Source: a phage. From it: a DNA stretch of 64,000 bases. The notes beneath the pieces are model-generated. The model did not search any database, had not been told where the DNA came from, and worked only from the letters and a program-made list of their open reading frames with translations. Below are positions 4,919 through 64,000 of this stretch, piece by piece (within the stretch, counting starts at the first letter, position 1; each line of letters starts with the position of its first letter). The DNA lies in the sequence record PX969468.1; one strand, given 5' to 3'. The translations under genes were made by a program, and so were the position numbers.

Positions 4919-6990
4919 TGGCAATAGCTGTTTTTAAACCTTACCGTGATTACTCTACAATGGCTGCACGGTTTCATTACCGCACAGTTCAAGATACTGC
5001 AGTTCCAGGTAGGGATTATGATCATGTTGAGGGTGATATAACTATTCCGGTTGGGGCAACCAGTATTGAGATTCCTGTAGAAATTGTTGACAAATTGCCA
5101 AACAGGTTGCCAAGAAGCTTCTTTATGGAGTTTTCATCAAACTCCCAAGGGGTTATGATTGGAACACAAAGAGCGAAATGTACAATAGTTTCAGATGAGA
5201 ATCTTGACAGAATATCTTGGGATACCGTTGAGGAGAGAATGTTTCACCCAAGATACTGGGTTACAACCACACAGCAGACTGAAAGCACCTGTATTGTTGC
5301 GGATAATAACTGCTGTATTAACCGTTTAGTGTCAAGAACATATGGAGGCATGGCTGGGTGCATTTGGGAAACAGTTGACAAGTATGACCATTTCGGTATT
5401 GGATTTGATGATCACTACGAGATGAGAAACACCAAGCTTTGGTTCAGAATGTCAATAACCAATGCCAGCAACTTTTCCACCCCTGAAAAGATGATTATGA
5501 CTGTAGACCTTGTTGATGGTACAATCATCTATGTTCCTTTAGCTCAATATGCTGTCAGCATCTCAGAGGATAAGAATGTTGCAGAAATTCATATTGATTT
5601 CGAGGACTGCGTCGGGATGGACCAGAACAACAACATGATGGGTGTTGATCCTCGGCAGGTGAGAAGGATTCTAATACCACTTATGCCTAAAGATTGGGTA
5701 GGTAATAGCACAGACCCGAGAACGGAAAATGTAGAGTGTGAGCTGCGTCTAGATCTGCTTCAGCCGGACACAGGCTGGAAAATGATGCAACTTAACAATA
5801 TCCAGGTGAAAGAGCACGACGTCGGGATCTGCACAGCATATGACGATATGTGGAACGTATCCCCTTTAAGGGTGTTGAGCAATATCAAGCGCCTTGGCTA
5901 TACCGGAACCATAAATCATTATGTTGGTATGAGTCATTATTATGACTACACATGGTCAGGAACCCAATGGTCTATAAACAAAACAGGGGCTCTAAACGCT
6001 GCAGCTTATAAATGGCATGATGATTTTATGTACAATGCCAAACGACATGACTTCGACGTTATGCAGTCTGTAAGCTTTGAGCTTTATAGCGATGCCTGCC
6101 CGTTGGAATGGACCCAGAGAGACTGGAACGATAACTATGCTAAAACAGGCTATACGCCTTGTAGTTACCTCCTGTCTCCAACCATTGAAGAGGGTATGAA
6201 TTTCCTTACTGCGGTATTTAAGAATTTTGCATCAGCCGCTATGAGAAACAACCTGCCAGTGATTATGCAGATTGGTGAACCGTGGTGGTGGTTCAATACC
6301 GATACTCGTAAGCCTTGTATTTATGACTACCCTACAAAGCAGGCGTTTTATGATGAGACTGGTGAATATGCACTAGACATTGGGACTATTGACGATCCTA
6401 AAACTGGCGGTGTTTATGACAAGTATGTAGCATTTTGTCGTGGTAAGCTTGGCGCTCGTATTGCAGCCATTTCAAAGGCAATAAAAGCACACGCTGCATC
6501 GGCTCAGATGACAGCTTTACTGTTTTTCCCCACTATTATGGAAACCGAGCTTACGCAAAAACTGAACCTTGCTGACCAATATAAAAAGGAAGCAGGTGCT
6601 CTTGATTTCTTCTGCACTGAGTGCTACGATTGGGTGATGCAGGGAGGTATTGAAAAGGCAAAAGAGTCTGTAAACATACCTATCGTTAAGTTAGGTTGGA
6701 AACCGTCTGAAATACAATACCTTGCAGGGTTCGTTCCTAGCAAAGAGCTTGCTCCGGTATATGGCTACGACCCAACCAGGAATTACCAAGAATTTTTATG
6801 GAGATGTATTTGCGGAAACATGGCAACCATAGAGTATAGATACCCTGAGGTAAAACAGTATGTGTGGGCATACCCGCAAGTAATGTCTGACAGCATCACT
6901 GTTACCGCTAGAGATTCTACCGTGCTTCATATGGGGCAGGTTGCTCTGAAAGGGTATGTAGAAGATGTTGTCCCGCCAGACTTCTCATAA
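4918..6990 (+). CDS. Structural-module protein with N-terminal Calx-beta-like domain
   Basis: 690-aa ORF; N-terminus TVQDTAVPGRDYDHVEGDITIPVGATSIEIPVEIVDK fits Calx-beta pattern. Confidence 0.55.
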   Translation: MAIAVFKPYRDYSTMAARFHYRTVQDTAVPGRDYDHVEGDITIPVGATSIEIPVEIVDKLPNRLPRSFFMEFSSNSQGVMIGTQRAKCTIVSDENLDRISWDTVEERMFHPRYWVTTTQQTESTCIVADNNCCINRLVSRTYGGMAGCIWETVDKYDHFGIGFDDHYEMRNTKLWFRMSITNASNFSTPEKMIMTVDLVDGTIIYVPLAQYAVSISEDKNVAEIHIDFEDCVGMDQNNNMMGVDPRQVRRILIPLMPKDWVGNSTDPRTENVECELRLDLLQPDTGWKMMQLNNIQVKEHDVGICTAYDDMWNVSPLRVLSNIKRLGYTGTINHYVGMSHYYDYTWSGTQWSINKTGALNAAAYKWHDDFMYNAKRHDFDVMQSVSFELYSDACPLEWTQRDWNDNYAKTGYTPCSYLLSPTIEEGMNFLTAVFKNFASAAMRNNLPVIMQIGEPWWWFNTDTRKPCIYDYPTKQAFYDETGEYALDIGTIDDPKTGGVYDKYVAFCRGKLGARIAAISKAIKAHAASAQMTALLFFPTIMETELTQKLNLADQYKKEAGALDFFCTECYDWVMQGGIEKAKESVNIPIVKLGWKPSEIQYLAGFVPSKELAPVYGYDPTRNYQEFLWRCICGNMATIEYRYPEVKQYVWAYPQVMSDSITVTARDSTVLHMGQVALKGYVEDVVPPDFS

Positions 6991-7002
6991 TCAGGAGATA
7001 AA

Positions 7003-38405: not shown

Positions 38406-40835
38406 ATGAGTATGTATAGCTTCGATTTTGAGGCCTCTGGGCTTTTGGAAGATCCAGACCTTTATTATCACTGCGGCCTGTTTAAAGCGTTGAATAAGAA
38501 CCGTTTTATGCTGTTCCTTCCTCTAAATGACCGCACACACTACTCCGAGGAGGATATAGAAAAGGCTAAGAACTTCATTCTGGCAAAGAAAACTCTTTAT
38601 AAAGATTTTGAAGTTCGCATAGCAGATTTTTCAGAGTTGGAAGGTTGGCTTACAGGAAATTCTGACTGGTCACCAACAGCTTTGAACTGCCATAACTGCT
38701 ACAGTTATGACTTTATGCTGATGGAAAGATTATCTGGTATTCATTTTGATATGTTCCGTGATCCTAAATGTATGGGGACTATCAACGATCACCAGGTTAA
38801 CCTGTTTGATACGTTGGCGATGAGCCGAATCTTGTGGCCTGATCGCCCTTTACCAAAAGGTTGTCCGGACTCTGTATTCAACCCGGTTACTAAGAAAATG
38901 CAGCCTGTTGGTCCTCACGGCCTTATGGCATGGGGCTACGCCCTTGGTAACCAGAAAGTTCAAATTGATGACTGGCGCGATCTTCCGTTATGGAAGTATG
39001 TGGATCGTGTATTTGAGGACGTTATCATCCAGGAGCTGCTCTGGAAAGAGCTGGTAGCGGAATCAAAAGGTGTATTCTACGGCAAATCTGACATGCAGAA
39101 CTTTATGTACGATCCTGCCAAAGAGAAGCCGAAAGGGTTCAAGAAGATCACCTGGAAGAACGCATTACGTCGAGGCATGTTGCAGCACTTCCTGATGGAG
39201 CTGCAGGCCCGTCAGGGTGTATACTTCGACATAGATGGAGCTATTGCTTTACGTGACCGTTGCGATGCGTGGATGAAAGAAATCGCTGATCGTGTTGAAC
39301 CACAACTGCCTTTAAAAGAGCTGTCAATGTCTCAGCGGCCCAAGTTCCCTGAAAAGCCGTTTAACCAAGATGGGACAATCTCTAATAATGGTTGGAAATG
39401 GTTAAAAGATAAGCTTGGCTATCCTGTGGACATGAGTGCTTTAGAGTTCAAAGCCCCACCTAAGCGAGCATTTACCTCTACAGGAGATGTCAGTAAGATG
39501 GGGATAAAATGGTGTGAAGAGATGGGCTGCAAAGACCACGATAAGATGGCTGATTTCTTGAGAGGCTATATTAAGGGCACCTCCACACCACAACCTTTAC
39601 CTAAAGAGCTAATGGATCAGGCAATAAGTGATCTACAGCAGAAGCGAATGCCGGACTGCAAGATACCTATGAAAATCAGCAATCAGGACGACATTAAGCG
39701 ATACCTGATCAGTGCTGGTTGGCTTCCGACAATGTGGAGAACTAAGGATGTAACTAAAGACAGCAAGAAGAAAGCTTTACCTGATGCAGATGTTGATGCA
39801 CGAGTATATGCATATATGGACGAGCTTTTGGAGTCAGAGTATTGTGACCTAATTATCAACTTCTGGAACAAAACTGATGCTAAGTTCCAGACAACCGTGC
39901 ACAAGTTCCGAAGCTTTCCTAACTCCGAAAGGATTAAAAAGGAAGTATTCGGGAAAATACGTAGAAAAGCTAGGGCACTTATTACTTCTCCGCAACTGAA
40001 AGATACGTTTGGACACCTGTGTCCGAATCTTGAAAAATTGAACGGAGAGATGGCTAAAGATATCGTCTTATGGTTATCATTGCGAAACCGCAGATCGGTA
40101 CTTGATCCAATCAAGGAGGATAAGGTTGACACTGGTCTTCTTAATCACCCACGTTTGAAGATTGACCATAAGCTTCCTGCTAAAAGCTCTGGATTAACAA
40201 ACACTTCCAGACAGAAACACAGTATTTGTGCAAACATGCCTAAACCCTCTCCTAAAGTGGTTATGGGTAAAGAGATGCGTAGCTTGTGGGGTGTTCCTCC
40301 AGGATACTTTGAGATCGGTATCGACGGGTCCAACTTAGAGCAGCTTATCGGGGCTTGGGGTGCCTTTGAGTTCGACAACGGCCTGTATTACGATGTTGTA
40401 AGTAACGGAGACGCACACCAAAACAATGCTGAGGCATATACAAAAGTAGCAGGCAGAGAGGTGTCCCGTAACGACGGTAAACCTATCACGTATGGGGTTA
40501 TGTACGGGGCACAAAAAGATAAAGTTGCAGATATGCTGGACATCTCTCCAGAGTTGGGACAAAGGGTAATCGATGCGCTTTGGGATGCCAACCCTGGTCT
40601 TAAGGGCCGTAAAGAGGATCTGGAGAAATTCTGGGAAGCAACGGGTAAGAAGTTTATCTACTCTTTTGATGGTCATGCCATCTGGACCCGATCTAAACAC
40701 TCTTTACTTAATGCATACCAACAGAATGGTGGTGCATCGCTGTGTGACTTAGTTGGGATACTCATGCACCACCAAATGGTGAAGCGTGGGTGGTACGATG
40801 AAGGTGTTCGTCGTATTATTTATTACCATAAATAA
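38406..40835 (+). CDS. DNA polymerase, family A
   Basis: Exo I FDFEASG, motif A IGIDGSNLEQL, motif B RNDGKPITYGVMYG. Confidence 0.85.
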   Translation: MSMYSFDFEASGLLEDPDLYYHCGLFKALNKNRFMLFLPLNDRTHYSEEDIEKAKNFILAKKTLYKDFEVRIADFSELEGWLTGNSDWSPTALNCHNCYSYDFMLMERLSGIHFDMFRDPKCMGTINDHQVNLFDTLAMSRILWPDRPLPKGCPDSVFNPVTKKMQPVGPHGLMAWGYALGNQKVQIDDWRDLPLWKYVDRVFEDVIIQELLWKELVAESKGVFYGKSDMQNFMYDPAKEKPKGFKKITWKNALRRGMLQHFLMELQARQGVYFDIDGAIALRDRCDAWMKEIADRVEPQLPLKELSMSQRPKFPEKPFNQDGTISNNGWKWLKDKLGYPVDMSALEFKAPPKRAFTSTGDVSKMGIKWCEEMGCKDHDKMADFLRGYIKGTSTPQPLPKELMDQAISDLQQKRMPDCKIPMKISNQDDIKRYLISAGWLPTMWRTKDVTKDSKKKALPDADVDARVYAYMDELLESEYCDLIINFWNKTDAKFQTTVHKFRSFPNSERIKKEVFGKIRRKARALITSPQLKDTFGHLCPNLEKLNGEMAKDIVLWLSLRNRRSVLDPIKEDKVDTGLLNHPRLKIDHKLPAKSSGLTNTSRQKHSICANMPKPSPKVVMGKEMRSLWGVPPGYFEIGIDGSNLEQLIGAWGAFEFDNGLYYDVVSNGDAHQNNAEAYTKVAGREVSRNDGKPITYGVMYGAQKDKVADMLDISPELGQRVIDALWDANPGLKGRKEDLEKFWEATGKKFIYSFDGHAIWTRSKHSLLNAYQQNGGASLCDLVGILMHHQMVKRGWYDEGVRRIIYYHK

Positions 40836-41102
40836 CATTGTGGCTTCATAGAGTAATCTATGTCGAATAACCTCTTTAACTGCGGGAAGCCTAAACCTTA
40901 TGGCAAGGTAATCCGCAACGAAGCGCTCAAAAGAGCGAACGCTCAGAGGCCATTCCGAAAGGAAGTAGACCAGCAAGTGCGGTCGAAATGGGAGGATTCC
41001 TGTGGTTGCTTATCATAGGAATATGAGATGGTCCGATCCTACGTGAAAACGTATGGCTATGCACGTAATGGTGCGGGGTAGCTTAACGACCTACCTGAAC
41101 TA

Positions 41103-49660: not shown

Positions 49661-49983
49661 CAGAGATCATCGTTTCAACTGCAGGGTATGTATTCCTGAC
49701 AATCATTGCGCTGGCTATTCTGGTGGCGGTGTATGGATTTGTTATCCTGCCCATTCTTGAGACATTTAGTTTGTGTCGGTGTTGGAGAAAAGCTTACGGT
49801 CCACAACCATGGAAGGACTGGCCCCACCTGGTGCGCTTAGCGTTCTCTTATGCTTACGATCACTCCAGCAGTGCATGCATAACCGGATACCACGCCCACA
49901 ACTGGAGCTGGGAAGGGTTGAGGAAATGGAATGTTACAAAGACCATACCTCTGCGCATGTACAAAGGAAAAAGGAGGGATTGA
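49657..49983 (+). CDS. Small membrane protein (108 aa)
   Basis: N-terminal TM helix (YVFLTIIALAILVAVYGFVILPIL). Confidence 0.45.
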   Translation: MTEIIVSTAGYVFLTIIALAILVAVYGFVILPILETFSLCRCWRKAYGPQPWKDWPHLVRLAFSYAYDHSSSACITGYHAHNWSWEGLRKWNVTKTIPLRMYKGKRRD

Positions 49984-50627
49984 TGGGGATACCTGTTAAA
50001 GACAGAAAAATATGTGGTCGTGGAGTAAACGATTTAAAAGACAAAGTCCCAATGTACCAATCTGTTAATGGTAAGAGAGTACCAGAACCTCACTATGCTA
50101 CATGGAAAGCATTATTCCAGAGGTGCTACGGCGATAACTCAAAGTACCATACAGGTTGTGAAGTTGTAGAAGATTGGTGGTTGTTCTCAGAATTCTGGAA
50201 ATGGATGGATACACAAGAGTGGAAAAGAGACGCTAAGAAGTTCACTCTTGACAAAGACCTGAAAATCCCCGGAAACAGAATATACTCCCCAGAAACATGT
50301 ATGTTTGTTCCACCACAAATAAACACCTTATTTGGCATAAGACAGGCAGCACGAGGGGATTTACCTTTGGGTGTGACACTTAGAAAAGATGTAAACAAGT
50401 ATCTCGTGCATTGTCATCAAGATGGAAAAATTGTTCATGGTGGTCATTTCGATGATCCGCAGATAGCACACAAGGTGTGGCAAGAAATGAAACTTGAGGA
50501 GATGAAGCTTCAAGCTATTAAAAACAAAGATGAGATTTGGCTGTTCGCCATTAAACGTGCAATAACTATCCTTGAGAATGATTTGAAAAATAATAAGGAG
50601 ACTATAACATTGGTGAAATTTATTTAA
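49983..50627 (+). CDS. Homing-endonuclease-associated DNA-binding/HNH-like protein
   Basis: ATG after AAGGAGGG; YATWKALFQRCYG..YHTGCEVVEDWWLFSEFWKWM motif common in phage HNH/AP2-type proteins. Confidence 0.45.
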   Translation: MGIPVKDRKICGRGVNDLKDKVPMYQSVNGKRVPEPHYATWKALFQRCYGDNSKYHTGCEVVEDWWLFSEFWKWMDTQEWKRDAKKFTLDKDLKIPGNRIYSPETCMFVPPQINTLFGIRQAARGDLPLGVTLRKDVNKYLVHCHQDGKIVHGGHFDDPQIAHKVWQEMKLEEMKLQAIKNKDEIWLFAIKRAITILENDLKNNKETITLVKFI

Positions 50628-50639
50628 GATATTTATGGT

Positions 50640-51250
50640 GGTATTTATTTTAAAATTATAAAAATTTTAGGTGATGAGGGAAAATATGTAATGGATTTTC
50701 CCTTATTTATCAGATATTTGCAGATATTTGGAAATCCTTAGAAAATCAGAAAATGGATCGAAAACTAAAATGGATTTTTCAGAGTAGGCGCGACAAGCTG
50801 AATAACTCATCCTATCGTTTGCACCATATTCCAGGCCACCATTATAGATTTCCCACACATGCTAACCTCCCTCTACTAGAACTTCCTCCACTTACCCTTG
50901 ACCTTCTATGGTAACAATCTAACCACTATCTTGAAGTTGCGGTGCAGCTTTCCAGGTACTCGATCTACTTTTCATTTCAGGGCTTGGATTTTCTGAAAAT
51001 TTTTCTCGATAAATTTCTCAGTACTCGATCTGTTTTTCGTTTTCTGAATCGGATTTTCTGGAAATCGTTCCGGATCTAGGCCTGAAATTTTTAGGGACGA
51101 AATCGATTTTTCGTTTTCAGAAATGGATTTTTAAAATTTCTATATGGGAATATTTTAGTGGATACTATTTTATAGGAAATTGTTACGGAGGGTAATTAGC
51201 GTGCTAATTAAATTTATTAAATGCGAGGAGTTCTCATTTAGAATTTTGAA
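50640..51250. repeat. AT-rich non-coding region with short direct repeats (origin-like)
   Basis: AAATGGATTTTTC / GGATTTTCTG copies, tandem CAGATATTTG x2, GTACTCGATCT x2, GATTTTTCGTTTTC x2. Confidence 0.6.
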
Positions 51251-51278
51251 TGATAATCATTCTCGTTTGCAGAATAAC

Positions 51279-51308
51279 GGGCAGGCCCGGTGATTGTCTC
51301 CCGGCCCC
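51279..51308. repeat. Left copy of 25-bp inverted repeat GGCAGGCC(C/T)GGTGATTGTCTCCC
   Basis: Matches reverse complement of 61065-61089 at 23/25 positions; partial third copy at 51419-51437. Confidence 0.7.
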
Positions 51309-51675
51309 TACTGCCCCGGCTTGTTATTATAGTAACACACAGGACAAAGAAAGCAAGAAGTTTTTGCATAAATTTTTAGACGATAATGATAATCGTTCTC
51401 ATTTCATGCAGCGCCCATCCCCGGTGGTTGTCTCCCCCGTCACCGGTGCCTGCCGTCCTTTCGATATGTATATTGTGCCACCTGGCGGGGCCGCTGTCAA
51501 CACTTTTCAAAAAATTTTTTCTAACCTGATGCGCTAACCGCTGCAACCTGGCGGGGCCAGCCTGGCAGGACCTAACTGACCAGGTAGGGGAGAATGAAGG
51601 CTTGCAAACCTGGTGGGCCTATGCTATAGGATAGGTAACAATTGAAGAGGAGGTACAAAAAATGAAAGGTAATAT

Positions 51676-51840
51676 ATGATCCCCCTGGAAAATGTAGCTA
51701 TTAATGACACTGAGGCTATCGCCCTGGTTGAAAAGGCTATGGCGGGAGCGTTGGAACATAAAGAAGAGTACGAAAAAATGATGGTTAACCTGGCAGGGGC
51801 GGCGGCTGGAGAATTCTACCCAAAAAATAATTTTAACTAA
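51676..51840 (+). CDS. Possible small protein (54 aa), below ORF-track cutoff
   Basis: ATG after GGAGG and a 5-codon leader mini-ORF. Confidence 0.3.
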   Translation: MIPLENVAINDTEAIALVEKAMAGALEHKEEYEKMMVNLAGAAAGEFYPKNNFN

Positions 51841-58389: not shown

Positions 58390-58674
58390 ATGGCTATTGT
58401 TACCGCTGGCGATGTAGTAGAAATGGAAGCAAAATACTTAAAAGCGGGTATGCACATCCTACGGAATGATCAAGAGTTATTATTAACGATGGTTGACTAT
58501 AATCACGGCCAGGATTATCCAAGCATCGACTACTTTTTTGAGTATGTTGATGAAGAGTTGAAAGAGGATGAGGCCTATTGCGGTGAGTTCTGCAACTTCT
58601 TTTGTCCTGATGAGGTTGTAAAGGTTATTTATCAACCTGGCGTAGCTTTCCCGCTGCACGCTATCAATAAATAA
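58390..58674 (+). CDS. Early-region acidic protein (94 aa)
   Basis: promoter TTGCAT-N17-GATAAT upstream, hairpin GGGGG-AGG-CCCCC, RBS TAGGAG. Confidence 0.5.
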   Translation: MAIVTAGDVVEMEAKYLKAGMHILRNDQELLLTMVDYNHGQDYPSIDYFFEYVDEELKEDEAYCGEFCNFFCPDEVVKVIYQPGVAFPLHAINK

Positions 58675-58729
58675 ACCTGGCGGGGCCGAAAAGGCCCCCA
58701 ATTATGAAAATAAAGAGAGGCAAATCATC

Positions 58730-58963
58730 ATGATGGAACAAATTAAACGCGCCGAGGCTATTAATGGCAACGTGATCTATTTTGTCAGCAAAAACGAAAA
58801 AGGCGTACCATATGCGGCAGTAATAGTACAACCTGACGGCGATTATTGGTTTACTGTGTACGGCACTTATTCTTTTGGGCGTCCAGTGCATGATAAAATT
58901 TTGAAAGTAGCGAACCCTACCGGGAAGAATATCACAGCAGAAAAATTTTTTGAAAATAGTTGA
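58730..58963 (+). CDS. Early-region protein (77 aa)
   Basis: RBS AGAGAGG. Confidence 0.5.
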   Translation: MMEQIKRAEAINGNVIYFVSKNEKGVPYAAVIVQPDGDYWFTVYGTYSFGRPVHDKILKVANPTGKNITAEKFFENS

Positions 58964-61937: not shown

Positions 61938-62357
61938 ATGAACATTAAATCTAATAATCCGGCATATAGCTTTGATAACGCTTTTTGTCACGGTCCGGCG
62001 GCGAAAGGATTCGAAATCGATGGTAAACTAATTATTGTCAATGTTGACGGGGAAGAGGTTGCAGTATATCCGGTGGCAGACGTAAAAAGCCGTTTACAAT
62101 GCCGCATTGATGTTACCGCCTATCAGCTTGATCCGGTCCGCATAGTTGCCCTGGTCCTGGAAGAAGAAATTAAAGCCATGCACCATAGCAACAGATTTAT
62201 TGGTGACGCGCAGGATAATATGAAAGTATGCCGCCATAAAGTTAATGAAGTGCTTAAAGAGTACGGCTATAAAGATCTTATGATCAAACGTGAGGAAAAA
62301 TTCCGCTACCGTAACGACCTGGCAAATCGAATCTATGAAATATACGAATCATTATAA
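61938..62357 (+). CDS. Early-region protein (139 aa)
   Basis: promoter TTGACA-N17-TATATT at 61861-61889, RBS AGAGG. Confidence 0.55.
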   Translation: MNIKSNNPAYSFDNAFCHGPAAKGFEIDGKLIIVNVDGEEVAVYPVADVKSRLQCRIDVTAYQLDPVRIVALVLEEEIKAMHHSNRFIGDAQDNMKVCRHKVNEVLKEYGYKDLMIKREEKFRYRNDLANRIYEIYESL

Positions 62358-62376
62358 TTTCTTAACTAAACTATCA

Positions 62377-62403
62377 GGGGCTTTAAAAGGCCCCTTTCTT
62401 TTT
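62377..62403 (+). terminator. Intrinsic terminator closing the small-gene block
   Basis: GGGGCT-TTAAAA-GGCCCC followed by TTTCTTTTTG. Confidence 0.7.
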
Positions 62404-63020
62404 GTCTGTATTTCTCCTACCACAAACGGCCCAGCCTGGCAAGTGGAATAATTGACTAGCCATCAATCCCACACACTGTACAAATATACATGGAAAATAA
62501 CTATTGCATAATCTTTCATTGTGTGGTAGCAGGGACATTTTTACCCGTTTTCTCTCCCAAAAGTGCACGTAATGCCGCTATTGCACAAATTTTAACCTGA
62601 TGCACATCTCCAATATCTTGTCAACAACTAAAAATCTTTATAAGTCATACACTTACACAACATCGAAAGCGTGTCCTACGCGAAAAATCGAGTATAACTA
62701 TAGCCGCCAAATCTCAGAATTCACGTACGCACGCCATTCTATAGCCTGCAAAGTATTTATTCCAACCACAGAATAACGGAATAGTCAATACCTGCATAAA
62801 ATAATTATTCGTGTAAACTGCATAACATAAATCCGCTCAGGTGTCAACATTTTTCGTAAACAGTCCGAAATTATCACGATGAGTTATCATAAACAAAGAA
62901 ATCTTTAGTCGTCTAATGTTTACTGTACATTACTATACTGACTGGAATCATTAGATGACTAAGAGAAAGATAAGGAATAATTAACAATGTAAGTATTTTA
63001 CCTGCAACAATAAGGCAACT

Positions 63021-63040
63021 ATGCAAACGAATGGCATGGC
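63021..63040. repeat. 20-bp direct repeat, copy 1
   Basis: ATGCAAACGAATGGCATGGC; second copy at 63325-63344 with one mismatch. Confidence 0.7.
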
Positions 63041-63053
63041 GCGACGGAGTCGC

Positions 63054-63205
63054 GACATAATATAAAAGCAGTAACAATCACCCCCGTGATAGTTTTTCTG
63101 CAATCTATTATTCAGATCATAGTTGCCTTGTATCCAGTTAATCATGACATAATAAGCAAGGCAACTATAGATCTGATAATAGTTGCCCTGCTTTTATATT
63201 ATGTC
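63054..63205. repeat. Perfect 18-bp inverted repeat pair enclosing AAGGCAACTAT sites
   Basis: GACATAATATAAAAGCAG (63054-63071) and CTGCTTTTATATTATGTC (63188-63205); four AAGGCAACTAT-like copies between 63011 and 63190 in both orientations. Confidence 0.75.
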
Positions 63206-63256
63206 ATAGAAACGCCCGAAGGGGTGACCTAGTCACCTGGCATAGCCAGCGAAAGA

Positions 63257-63320
63257 TTATTAACTTGTTAATCGTCAGCTTGTTGGCTGTTAGCTTGTCA
63301 ATTGTTAACTTGTTAATTGT
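63257..63320. repeat. Iteron array 1 (4 x about 15 bp, TTAACTTGTTAAT-like)
   Basis: TTAACTTGTTAATCG, TCAGCTTGTTGGCTG, TTAGCTTGTCAATTG, TTAACTTGTTAATTG in tandem. Confidence 0.7.
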
Positions 63321-63324
63321 TTTC

Positions 63325-63344
63325 ATGCAAACGAATGTCATGGC
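63325..63344. repeat. 20-bp direct repeat, copy 2
   Basis: ATGCAAACGAATGTCATGGC. Confidence 0.7.
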
Positions 63345-63356
63345 TTATCATATCTG

Positions 63357-63432
63357 TGTAAACTGTCAAGGTGTAAACTATCCAGGCGTAAACAGTCTAT
63401 GCGGGAACAATCTATACGTGAACAGTGAAACA
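63357..63432. repeat. Iteron array 2 (5 x about 15 bp, GTAAAC-N3-TC-like)
   Basis: GTGTAAACTGTCAAG, GTGTAAACTATCCAG, GCGTAAACAGTCTAT, GGGAACAATCTATAC, GTGAACAGTGAAACA. Confidence 0.7.
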
Positions 63433-63453
63433 TGAAATAATAACAGTCGTTAT

Positions 63454-63545
63454 TGTGTCGAAAGTGTATAAAGTGTCAGATTATGGCATATTGTGTGACA
63501 TTGTGTCAAAGGTAAAAGTGTCAAAAGTGGCAAAAGTGTCAGACA
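63454..63545. repeat. Iteron array 3 (about 8 x 10 bp, AAGTGTCA-like)
   Basis: TTGTGTCGAA, AAGTGTATAA, AAGTGTCAGA, TTGTGTGACA, TTGTGTCAAA, AAGTGTCAAA, AAGTGGCAAA, AAGTGTCAGA at about 10-bp period. Confidence 0.7.
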
Positions 63546-64000
63546 AGTTTTTCTCCTCTTTGTCAAGTGCTGCATGAAAAATTTACAAACTGGTATGGTA
63601 GCATTTTTGCGGCCCTGTTTACATTCAGGAGTGTATGTATAACCCTTGTTGTGTGGGCGTTTAGACGTCTGGACGGTCAGAAGTCCGCAGGTTAATATCT
63701 AATCTATTGGTCGCTAACTATATCCCCCACAAATAATAAGAAATGCAATTGTTATGTGCGTAAACAGTGACTCATGTTATCAATCCCTGTATGTATCGCC
63801 AGTGGTGCGCATAATGGGTATTATGTTAAATTGCCCGTAATGATAACTATTCTCACAATGATAGGTATTCTCATTCAACCCCGCAAAACAGGTTGCAAAT
63901 GTTGTGCCACTGTGTGAACGGCCTCACCTATTAATCTGCCTCACTGCCCCGATATTTGAGAATTGTTATAAGAATGAGAAGTATTCCCATTTCGTCCGCC

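Follow-up and report, generated by a model that had tools for sequence, protein, structure and literature searches.

PeSL cassettes are the closest described elements to the GC-rich boxes reported here. In T4-type phages (RB49/phi1, PST and nt-1), they combine a strong sigma-70 early promoter, an A/T tract and a G(n)-loop-C(n) stem-loop located just upstream of the promoter, occur in many copies flanking ORFans, and mediate modular shuffling (PMC2839356, PMC4122927). Regulation in the rV5-like phages is essentially undescribed, though these phages are widely used as candidates for therapy and biocontrol. In the rV5 genome paper, only predictions of sigma-70 promoters and terminators are given, the origin is not placed, and neither the 13-mer motif nor Fur boxes are mentioned (PMC3606486). 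Literature searches for the motif, Fur boxes, the origin and Vequintavirinae transcriptomes gave nothing relevant.

Other known systems come into the comparison at the level of single sites. Operators within or next to core promoters include repressor sites over the −35/−10 spacer and MerR-type spacer sites, the latter with spacers of 19–20 bp, and the boxB hairpin of the lambda nut site has a 5-bp stem and a GAAAA loop. Here, we describe a 13-mer GC box, ACCTGGCGGGGCC, which is a real, conserved, lineage-specific and orientation-fixed cis element, and we weigh what its copies may do.

The GC box and its control region

The window, i.e., the whole 64,000-nt stretch of record PX969468.1 that was analyzed, belongs to an rV5-like Vequintavirus and matches more than 100 genomes with 90–98% identity in Megablast. 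The box cluster occupies the right end of a non-coding region of ~1 kb (50630–51660), flanked on the left by an HNH-like ORF and on the right by small ORFs in an array, every one of which has a sigma-70 promoter close to consensus. From left to right, this region holds iteron-like repeats, a Fur-box promoter, units A/B, the leftward promoter P_L, the remaining boxes and a weak rightward site (Table 1), and it is, in Vequintavirus phages, the bidirectional control region between the replication-gene block and a series of small genes driven by sigma-70 promoters. The initial annotation had placed the cluster upstream of the first early gene, which holds only approximately: the cluster is part of non-coding control DNA inside a long array of co-oriented genes (rV5 unit 10-1-238-164).

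Table 1. Coordinates of the boxes and of the neighboring elements in the window
Feature	Position	Strand	Remarks
Iteron-like direct repeats: AATGGATTTT boxes and three ~65-nt units (50946–51131, containing GTACTCGATCT)	50690–51131		Same non-coding region
Rightward promoter-like site TTGAAT-17-CAGAAT	51246–51275	+	Overlapped by Fur-box-like operator A (51246–51264, 15/19 to GATAATGATAATCATTATC)
Paralogous GC-rich units A and B, core CCCGGTGRTTGTCTCCC	51280–51457		Joined by the long-range inverted repeat GGCAGGCCCGGTGA ... TCACCGGTGCCTGCC
Fur-box-like operator B, GATAATGATAATCGTTCTC	51382–51400	+	17/19 to the Fur consensus; in unit B
P_L, predicted leftward sigma-70-type promoter	51472–51523	-	−10 CACAAT (51477–51472) with preceding TG; 17-bp spacer; −35 TTGACA (51500–51495); A/T tract (51501–51523)
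Box copy 1, ACCTGGCGGGGCC	51480–51492	+	Inside the 17-bp spacer of P_L
Box copy 2, ACCTGGCGGGGCC	51546–51558	+	Isolated; P_L −35 hexamer 45 bp away (box upstream)
Half-copy AGCCTGGCAGG	51559–51569	+	Immediately 3′ of copy 2; can pair with copy 2 (RNA or single-stranded DNA)
Weak rightward promoter-like site TTGCAA-17-TATAGG	51602–51607 / 51625–51630	+	Before the first small ORF; box 3 begins the spacer
Degenerate copy 3, ACCTGGTGGGCC	51608–51619	+	Fills the beginning of the spacer in the TTGCAA-17-TATAGG site; A at 51607 comes before it
Box copy 4 and stem-loop GGGGCC-GAAAA-GGCCCC	58675–58698	+	Box part 58675–58687; between ORF 58390–58674 and ORF 58730–58963

Three exact copies of the 13-mer were found in the window, all of them on the plus strand. 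The first and the last start at 51480 and 58675, i.e., six positions and one position away from where the initial annotation had put them (51486 and 58676), while the second copy and the variant at 51608 had been located correctly. With up to two mismatches allowed, the window contains six matches against 0.50 expected, a number reached in none of 100 dinucleotide shuffles, and the degenerate pattern ACCTGGYRGGSC has four matches against 0.03 expected, so the counts are well above chance. The description of the boxes as GC islands in an AT-rich context was also borne out, as GC content is 0.56 at 51478–51625, 0.34 in the non-coding DNA to the left (50630–51240) and 0.44 over the whole window. 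In the complete rV5 genome (138 kb), the 13-mer is present at the three orthologous sites only, all on the strand of the local genes, and it is thus a local element and not a genome-wide signal. Note that the octamer ACCTGGCG was considered as a genome-wide signal, with nine occurrences against 1.05 expected, and was rejected, its five minus-strand copies all being in-frame CGC-CAG-GTN (Arg-Gln-Val); the lack of any high-order k-mer excess supports this rejection. Clustering of CCWGG was likewise set aside, as five sites in 170 nt are equalled in other parts of the window, which shows no overall avoidance of CCWGG.

Conservation in related phages, which had been proposed as a check of the motif, was found at several levels of divergence. 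Among 14 rV5-like sequences, box 1 is unchanged in 13 (the exception being Gotham, with T to C at the fourth base), and box 2 is invariant save for A/G at its first base, with a variable left flank that has diverged beside an intact box in DrSchubert. It should be noticed that much of 51428–51565 is equally invariant in the rV5-like clade, so that box conservation there has little power. L108, a divergent 140-kb IMG/VR contig that lacks unit B and differs from the window in its iterons and downstream gene, carries two exact boxes with window-type flanks of 3–5 nt (GCC-ACCTGG and CTGCA-ACCTGG), and the exact 18-mer CTGCAACCTGGCGGGGCC is common to the window and L108 while the next 45 nt are only about half identical. 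In relatives of L108, the box is altered (L144, ACCTGGTGGGGCC) or degenerate (L148, ACCTGACGGGCC), and it must therefore be dispensable or evolvable in some lineages. The initial IMG/VR scan used a 15-mer, for which the matches were mostly at chance level.

The same non-coding gap exists in phiTE (Certrevirus), 4MG and SSE121 (Seunavirus) and nepoznato (Phapecoctavirus). In the Pectobacterium phage phiTE, the equivalent rightward promoter (TTGACA-17-CACAAT) has a spacer, ACCTGGCCGGGCC..., that matches the box at 12 of 13 bases; SSE121 and 4MG have TTGCAT-CC(T/C)GGCGGGG within a promoter-like site, and the spacer of the rightward promoter in nepoznato includes GCCAGGTGGC, the inverse of box 1 and its flank. 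The pseudo-ToxI locus of phiTE was considered and discarded, as it sits elsewhere in the phiTE genome.

The ORF 51250–51537 (95 aa), called spurious-looking in the initial annotation, is judged from the sequence to be very probably not a gene, because its start lies within the Fur-box promoter, AlexBoehm has a 134-nt deletion inside it that is not divisible by 3, and distant relatives lack such an ORF. Two further reading frames were rejected, namely a small ORF from GTG 51290, whose Ser/Arg codons seem synonymous across relatives but whose frame is lost in nepoznato and 4MG (alignment reading), and the minus-strand ORF 50703–50858, which falls in the most variable stretch, one with non-triplet indels.

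Some observations concern the surroundings. To the left, a stretch at ~49985–50722 with the HNH-like endonuclease ORF and its flank is missing from most relatives, whose alignment begins at ~50722, and is probably a mobile insertion; a Pfam search with the long ORF 49773–50627 gave no match. To the right, at 51663–51680, the first small ORF has a 2-nt insertion right after the ancestral ATG 51663, leading to a stop codon, and the ORF restarts at ATG 51676. The Pfam scan of ten neighboring small ORFs gave no match and hence no candidate binding protein. Elsewhere in the window, a group I intron was identified at 40820–41055 (Rfam RF00028, 64.7 bits, above the gathering score), and the low-GC stretch at ~62000–64000 corresponds to the 2.6-kb unannotated 'non-coding' box of rV5 (104013–106618), where two transcription units converge.

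Promoters, Fur-box-like sites and iterons around the boxes

P_L is predicted as a sigma-70 promoter on the basis of hexamers at 17 bp, an extended −10 TG, an upstream A/T tract that is UP-element-like and its conservation in relatives, and it obtained a promoter-scan score of 10/12 with TG. Positional equivalents are present in L108 (11/12), phiTE and SSE121, and the hexamers are kept in five genera or lineages, in which the spacers are GC-rich throughout but unrelated in sequence. In five lineages (the window, L142, L108, L144 and L148), a box lies 41–45 bp from the P_L −35 hexamer; the upstream distance of box 2 corresponds to roughly position −85 relative to P_L, and boxes 1 and 2 are separated by ~62–66 bp, i.e., roughly six helical turns. 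The promoter scan found no hexamers at copy 2 and at the 58675 copy. A sigma-54 promoter on the minus strand was rejected, as the spacing in TGGCCC-N7-TTGCA is two bases too long.

In the opposite orientation, the promoter-like site at the left of the units is kept in the window, phiTE, nepoznato, 4MG and SSE121 according to the alignment, and the L108 version was also flagged. Fur-box-like sites cover the −35 and the spacer of this conserved rightward promoter from Escherichia to Pectobacterium phages. Operator B is the only site of the window with at most three mismatches to the Fur consensus (none in shuffles), and the Fur 7-1-7 core is matched throughout in 4MG and with a single mismatch in phiTE, nepoznato and L108. 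Tandem Fur-box-like sites, two to four in number, occur in phiTE and nepoznato; in relatives, Fur-box-like sites lie at ~1410–1525 in L012, ~1440–1555 in L013 and ~1500–1550 in L014. If Fur acts on it, this promoter would let a virulent phage sense a host metal regulator, which would be unusual, and a literature search for Fur boxes in virulent phages gave nothing relevant.

Two other patterns were noticed outside the window. Relatives from Seunavirus, Certrevirus and Phapecoctavirus carry, immediately before the −35 in minus-strand promoters, a CpxR-box-like GTAAA-N5-GTAAA that does not occur in the window (L012 1617, L013 1659, L014 1644, L015 1619, L149 12288 and three sites in L078). In L073, an unrelated 108-kb IMG/VR contig, the pattern scan found by chance a long tandem Fur-box-like array (AAATGAGAATCATTC...) at ~6300–7000 beside the DnaA-box-like TTATCCACA.

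The rightward promoter-like site whose spacer begins with box 3 is weak and not conserved. Deletions or changes affect this box and the promoter-like site in FV3, Gotham, 241Ecol014PP, Mangalyan and DrSchubert, with deletion endpoints in repeats; box and rightward promoter are a variable distance apart (39, 43 and 47 bp), and FV3 and Gotham have lost the rightward site.

At the other end of the control region, the iteron-like repeats (50690–50780 and 50946–51131) are nearly invariant in rV5-like phages, the 160 nt between them (50780–50940) being variable and carrying indels. At the equivalent place, relatives carry iterons of their own that are specific to the lineage (GGGTCTCGATC in phiTE, TAACTATTAATCACCGT in L108). 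The repeats may be an origin or an array of protein-binding sites. Two exact Tus-binding Ter cores (ATGTTGTAACTAA) were observed on the minus strand of L108 (2871–2883 and 2959–2971), each just left of a GC box and in an orientation predicted to block leftward-moving forks.

Possible functions of the boxes

We tentatively read the boxes as operator-like DNA sites for a sequence-specific regulator of these promoters. Of the roles suggested in the initial annotation, that of recognition sites for a DNA-binding protein fits best, since the boxes lie in promoter spacers or at a fixed upstream position and persist beside diverged flanks, the binding itself remaining putative. The motif excess, the restriction of the 13-mer to three same-strand orthologous sites in rV5, the position in the P_L spacer, the conserved P_L hexamers around differing GC-rich spacers, the 41–45 bp distance, the intact boxes beside diverged flanks in DrSchubert and L108, the 12/13 match in phiTE and the box-like sequences at promoters of SSE121, 4MG and nepoznato all argue for operators. 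Against them stand the negative Pfam scan of ten neighboring small ORFs, the asymmetry of the box, which is unusual for dimeric operators, the changes in L148 and L144, the weak power of conservation within the clade, the variable 39/43/47 bp distance, the loss of the rightward site in FV3 and Gotham, and the 58675 copy, which has no promoter.

Under the operator reading, the regulator, either a phage product or a host factor, would bind the 13-mer boxes sequence-specifically. A protein on the spacer boxes would exclude RNA polymerase and could be stabilized by the upstream box, ~62–66 bp off, so that the promoters might be switched off or tuned once the regulator appears. The 58675 copy beside its stem-loop may serve as a roadblock or as an extra titration site in the small-gene array. 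If the boxes are operators, they offer a handle on the switching of the earliest promoters and a bait for the regulator. More speculatively, and with low confidence, the box cluster might be one layer of a host-sensing control hub common to the virulent Vequintavirinae and Stephanstirmvirinae, in which a strong leftward promoter and a Fur-gated rightward one face each other across a conserved GC-rich segment beside iterons, with the ACCTGGCGGGGCC boxes as the regulator's operators, and in which early transcription and possibly replication initiation would be tuned to host iron status and to a phage-timed switch.

It is also conceivable, if somewhat doubtful, that the boxes have no sequence-specific function and are relics of local duplication or gene conversion in a GC-rich linker, persisting because the phages are closely related and acting as accidental recombination substrates. 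Units A/B and the module made of the −35 and the A/T tract are visibly duplicated, and several deletions end at the repeats: the one in FV3 fuses copy 2 to copy 3, those in Gotham and 241Ecol014PP run between CCTGG repeats, and the one in AlexBoehm is an A/B recombinant in which the two units have collapsed into one hairpin. The decay of the box in L148 and L144 and the equal invariance of the surrounding 51428–51565 in the clade point in the same direction. However, this explanation does not account well for the exact 18-mer common with L108 next to poorly matching sequence, for the intact box by a diverged flank in DrSchubert, for the conserved distance to P_L, for the 12/13 match at the equivalent rightward promoter of phiTE, which belongs to another genus, or for a copy 7 kb away that is identical at 13 of 13 bases and conserved. 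If the boxes are only duplication relics, their interest is one of local annotation, e.g., the removal of rV5 ORF 198 and its homologues. Chi sites (GCTGGTGG) were rejected, as the boxes read CCTGGCGG or CCTGGTGG, i.e., 6–7 of 8 bases.

A function at the RNA level appears unlikely. According to this explanation, the box in rightward transcripts would flank GC-rich stem-loops or make up their 5′ arm, and these structures would attenuate, terminate or stabilize early RNAs in a PeSL-like manner; every exact copy is on the strand of rightward transcription. The fusion of the 13-mer to a GGGGCC-GAAAA-GGCCCC hairpin downstream, noted initially, was confirmed: the box at 58675 provides the 5′ arm (GGGGCC, 58682–58687; GGCCCC, 58693–58698) of a fold of −15.9 kcal/mol. 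Together with the window, five phages (with rV5, FV3, YP-6 and B9-1) keep this box and stem-loop, the first base being A or G and the loop measuring 5–6 nt (GAAAAA in FV3 and YP-6), and the stem is lengthened into GGCGGGGCC/GGCCCCUCC in FV3, YP-6 and B9-1. On its 3′ side lies a ribosome-binding site rather than a promoter, no promoter being nearby. The phi92-like homology begins just downstream of this copy, and phi92 has a different, unrelated stem-loop at the equivalent place, upstream of the homologous gene; moreover, the small-gene array is rich in G/C-tract hairpins. Within the cluster, copy 2 can pair with the adjacent half-copy, and ACCUGG of copy 3 with CCAGGU at 51580.

Yet, of all box copies, only the one at 58675 belongs to a stable, conserved stem-loop. 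For the plus-strand RNA of 51525–51665, folding is no better than in shuffles (z = −1.4); copy 1 does not form a stable local hairpin (−7.7 kcal/mol), and the window, L137 and L108 have different pairing partners 3′ of the box. A tRNA search found none in the window, and Rfam gave no match in the region at the gathering score, only chance-level matches at E up to 10, and none in four relatives; the suggestion that 51478–51625 contains seeds of structured RNAs is not supported. In addition, the box lies in the spacer, upstream of that promoter's start site, in the phiTE and window promoters, both L108 copies lie between divergent promoters, and no U-tract follows any copy. Intrinsic (Rho-independent) terminators were rejected on this last ground, the terminator scan having listed no box copy and the 58675 stem being followed by CAAUUAUG. 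A tRNA or tRNA-like 3′ end, considered for the minus-strand reading GGCCCCGCCA, was also rejected, given the negative tRNA search and an upstream partner arm at 58675 only.

The structured-RNA signal of this area lies to the left of the box cluster and on the opposite strand. The minus-strand RNA of 51200–51470, which P_L would produce across units B and A, has a folding z-score of −3.68 (−0.57 for the plus strand) and uses a 14-bp long-range helix between unit B and unit A. A conserved RNA hairpin of unit A across genera was rejected, as RNAalifold gave no consensus pairs.

Finally, a part in a replication origin, where the box would help to define an R-loop/primer transition or an unwinding boundary, is quite improbable. 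In its favor, the GC-rich DNA borders on iterons and an A/T tract, with strong promoters directed towards the iterons or away from them; the iteron-like repeats are nearly invariant and have lineage-specific counterparts at the same place in phiTE and L108, and two exact Ter cores stand next to the L108 boxes. Against it, GC skew in the window has no switch at this region (in rV5 it changes only where transcription turns; PMC3606486), the 58675 copy is far from the iterons, and the control region of the window holds no Tus Ter core, this core being present only in the relative L108.

Comparison with described elements

Like PeSL cassettes, the boxes are short, conserved and repeated, and they involve G-tract/C-tract stem-loops in a region of small genes without assigned function. 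A strong sigma-70-like promoter with an A/T-rich upstream tract accompanies copy 1, in P_L, and not copy 2 or the 58675 copy. The FV3, Gotham and 241Ecol014PP deletions end at the repeats, as indels between PeSL-bearing relatives do, and the 138-kb rV5 genome has only three exact copies. The boxes differ from PeSL in that copies 1–3 have no stable local stem-loop just upstream of a promoter, that one copy lies inside a promoter spacer, and that the copy with a stem-loop, at 58675, has no promoter.

The stem-loop at 58675 resembles lambda nut boxB in its GC stem over a GAAAA pentaloop in an early transcript. A lambda-type nut site was nevertheless rejected, as the loop varies between GAAAA and GAAAAA and no boxA-like sequence lies upstream; the other copies also lack such a hairpin. 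N-like proteins are not known from rV5-like phages.

The neighboring element, and not the box, can be compared with the Fur-repressed promoters of Enterobacteria, whose 19-bp consensus it matches at 17/19 and 15/19; it differs from them in belonging to a virulent phage genome, and Fur binding is here a prediction from sequence. As for operators of core promoters, including the MerR type, the box differs in that it is not a dyad and that the spacers measure 17 bp versus 19–20 bp. It resembles them in its placement, with boxes in the 17-bp spacers of P_L, of the rightward site of the window and of the phiTE rightward promoter, and with a further box at a fixed upstream distance.
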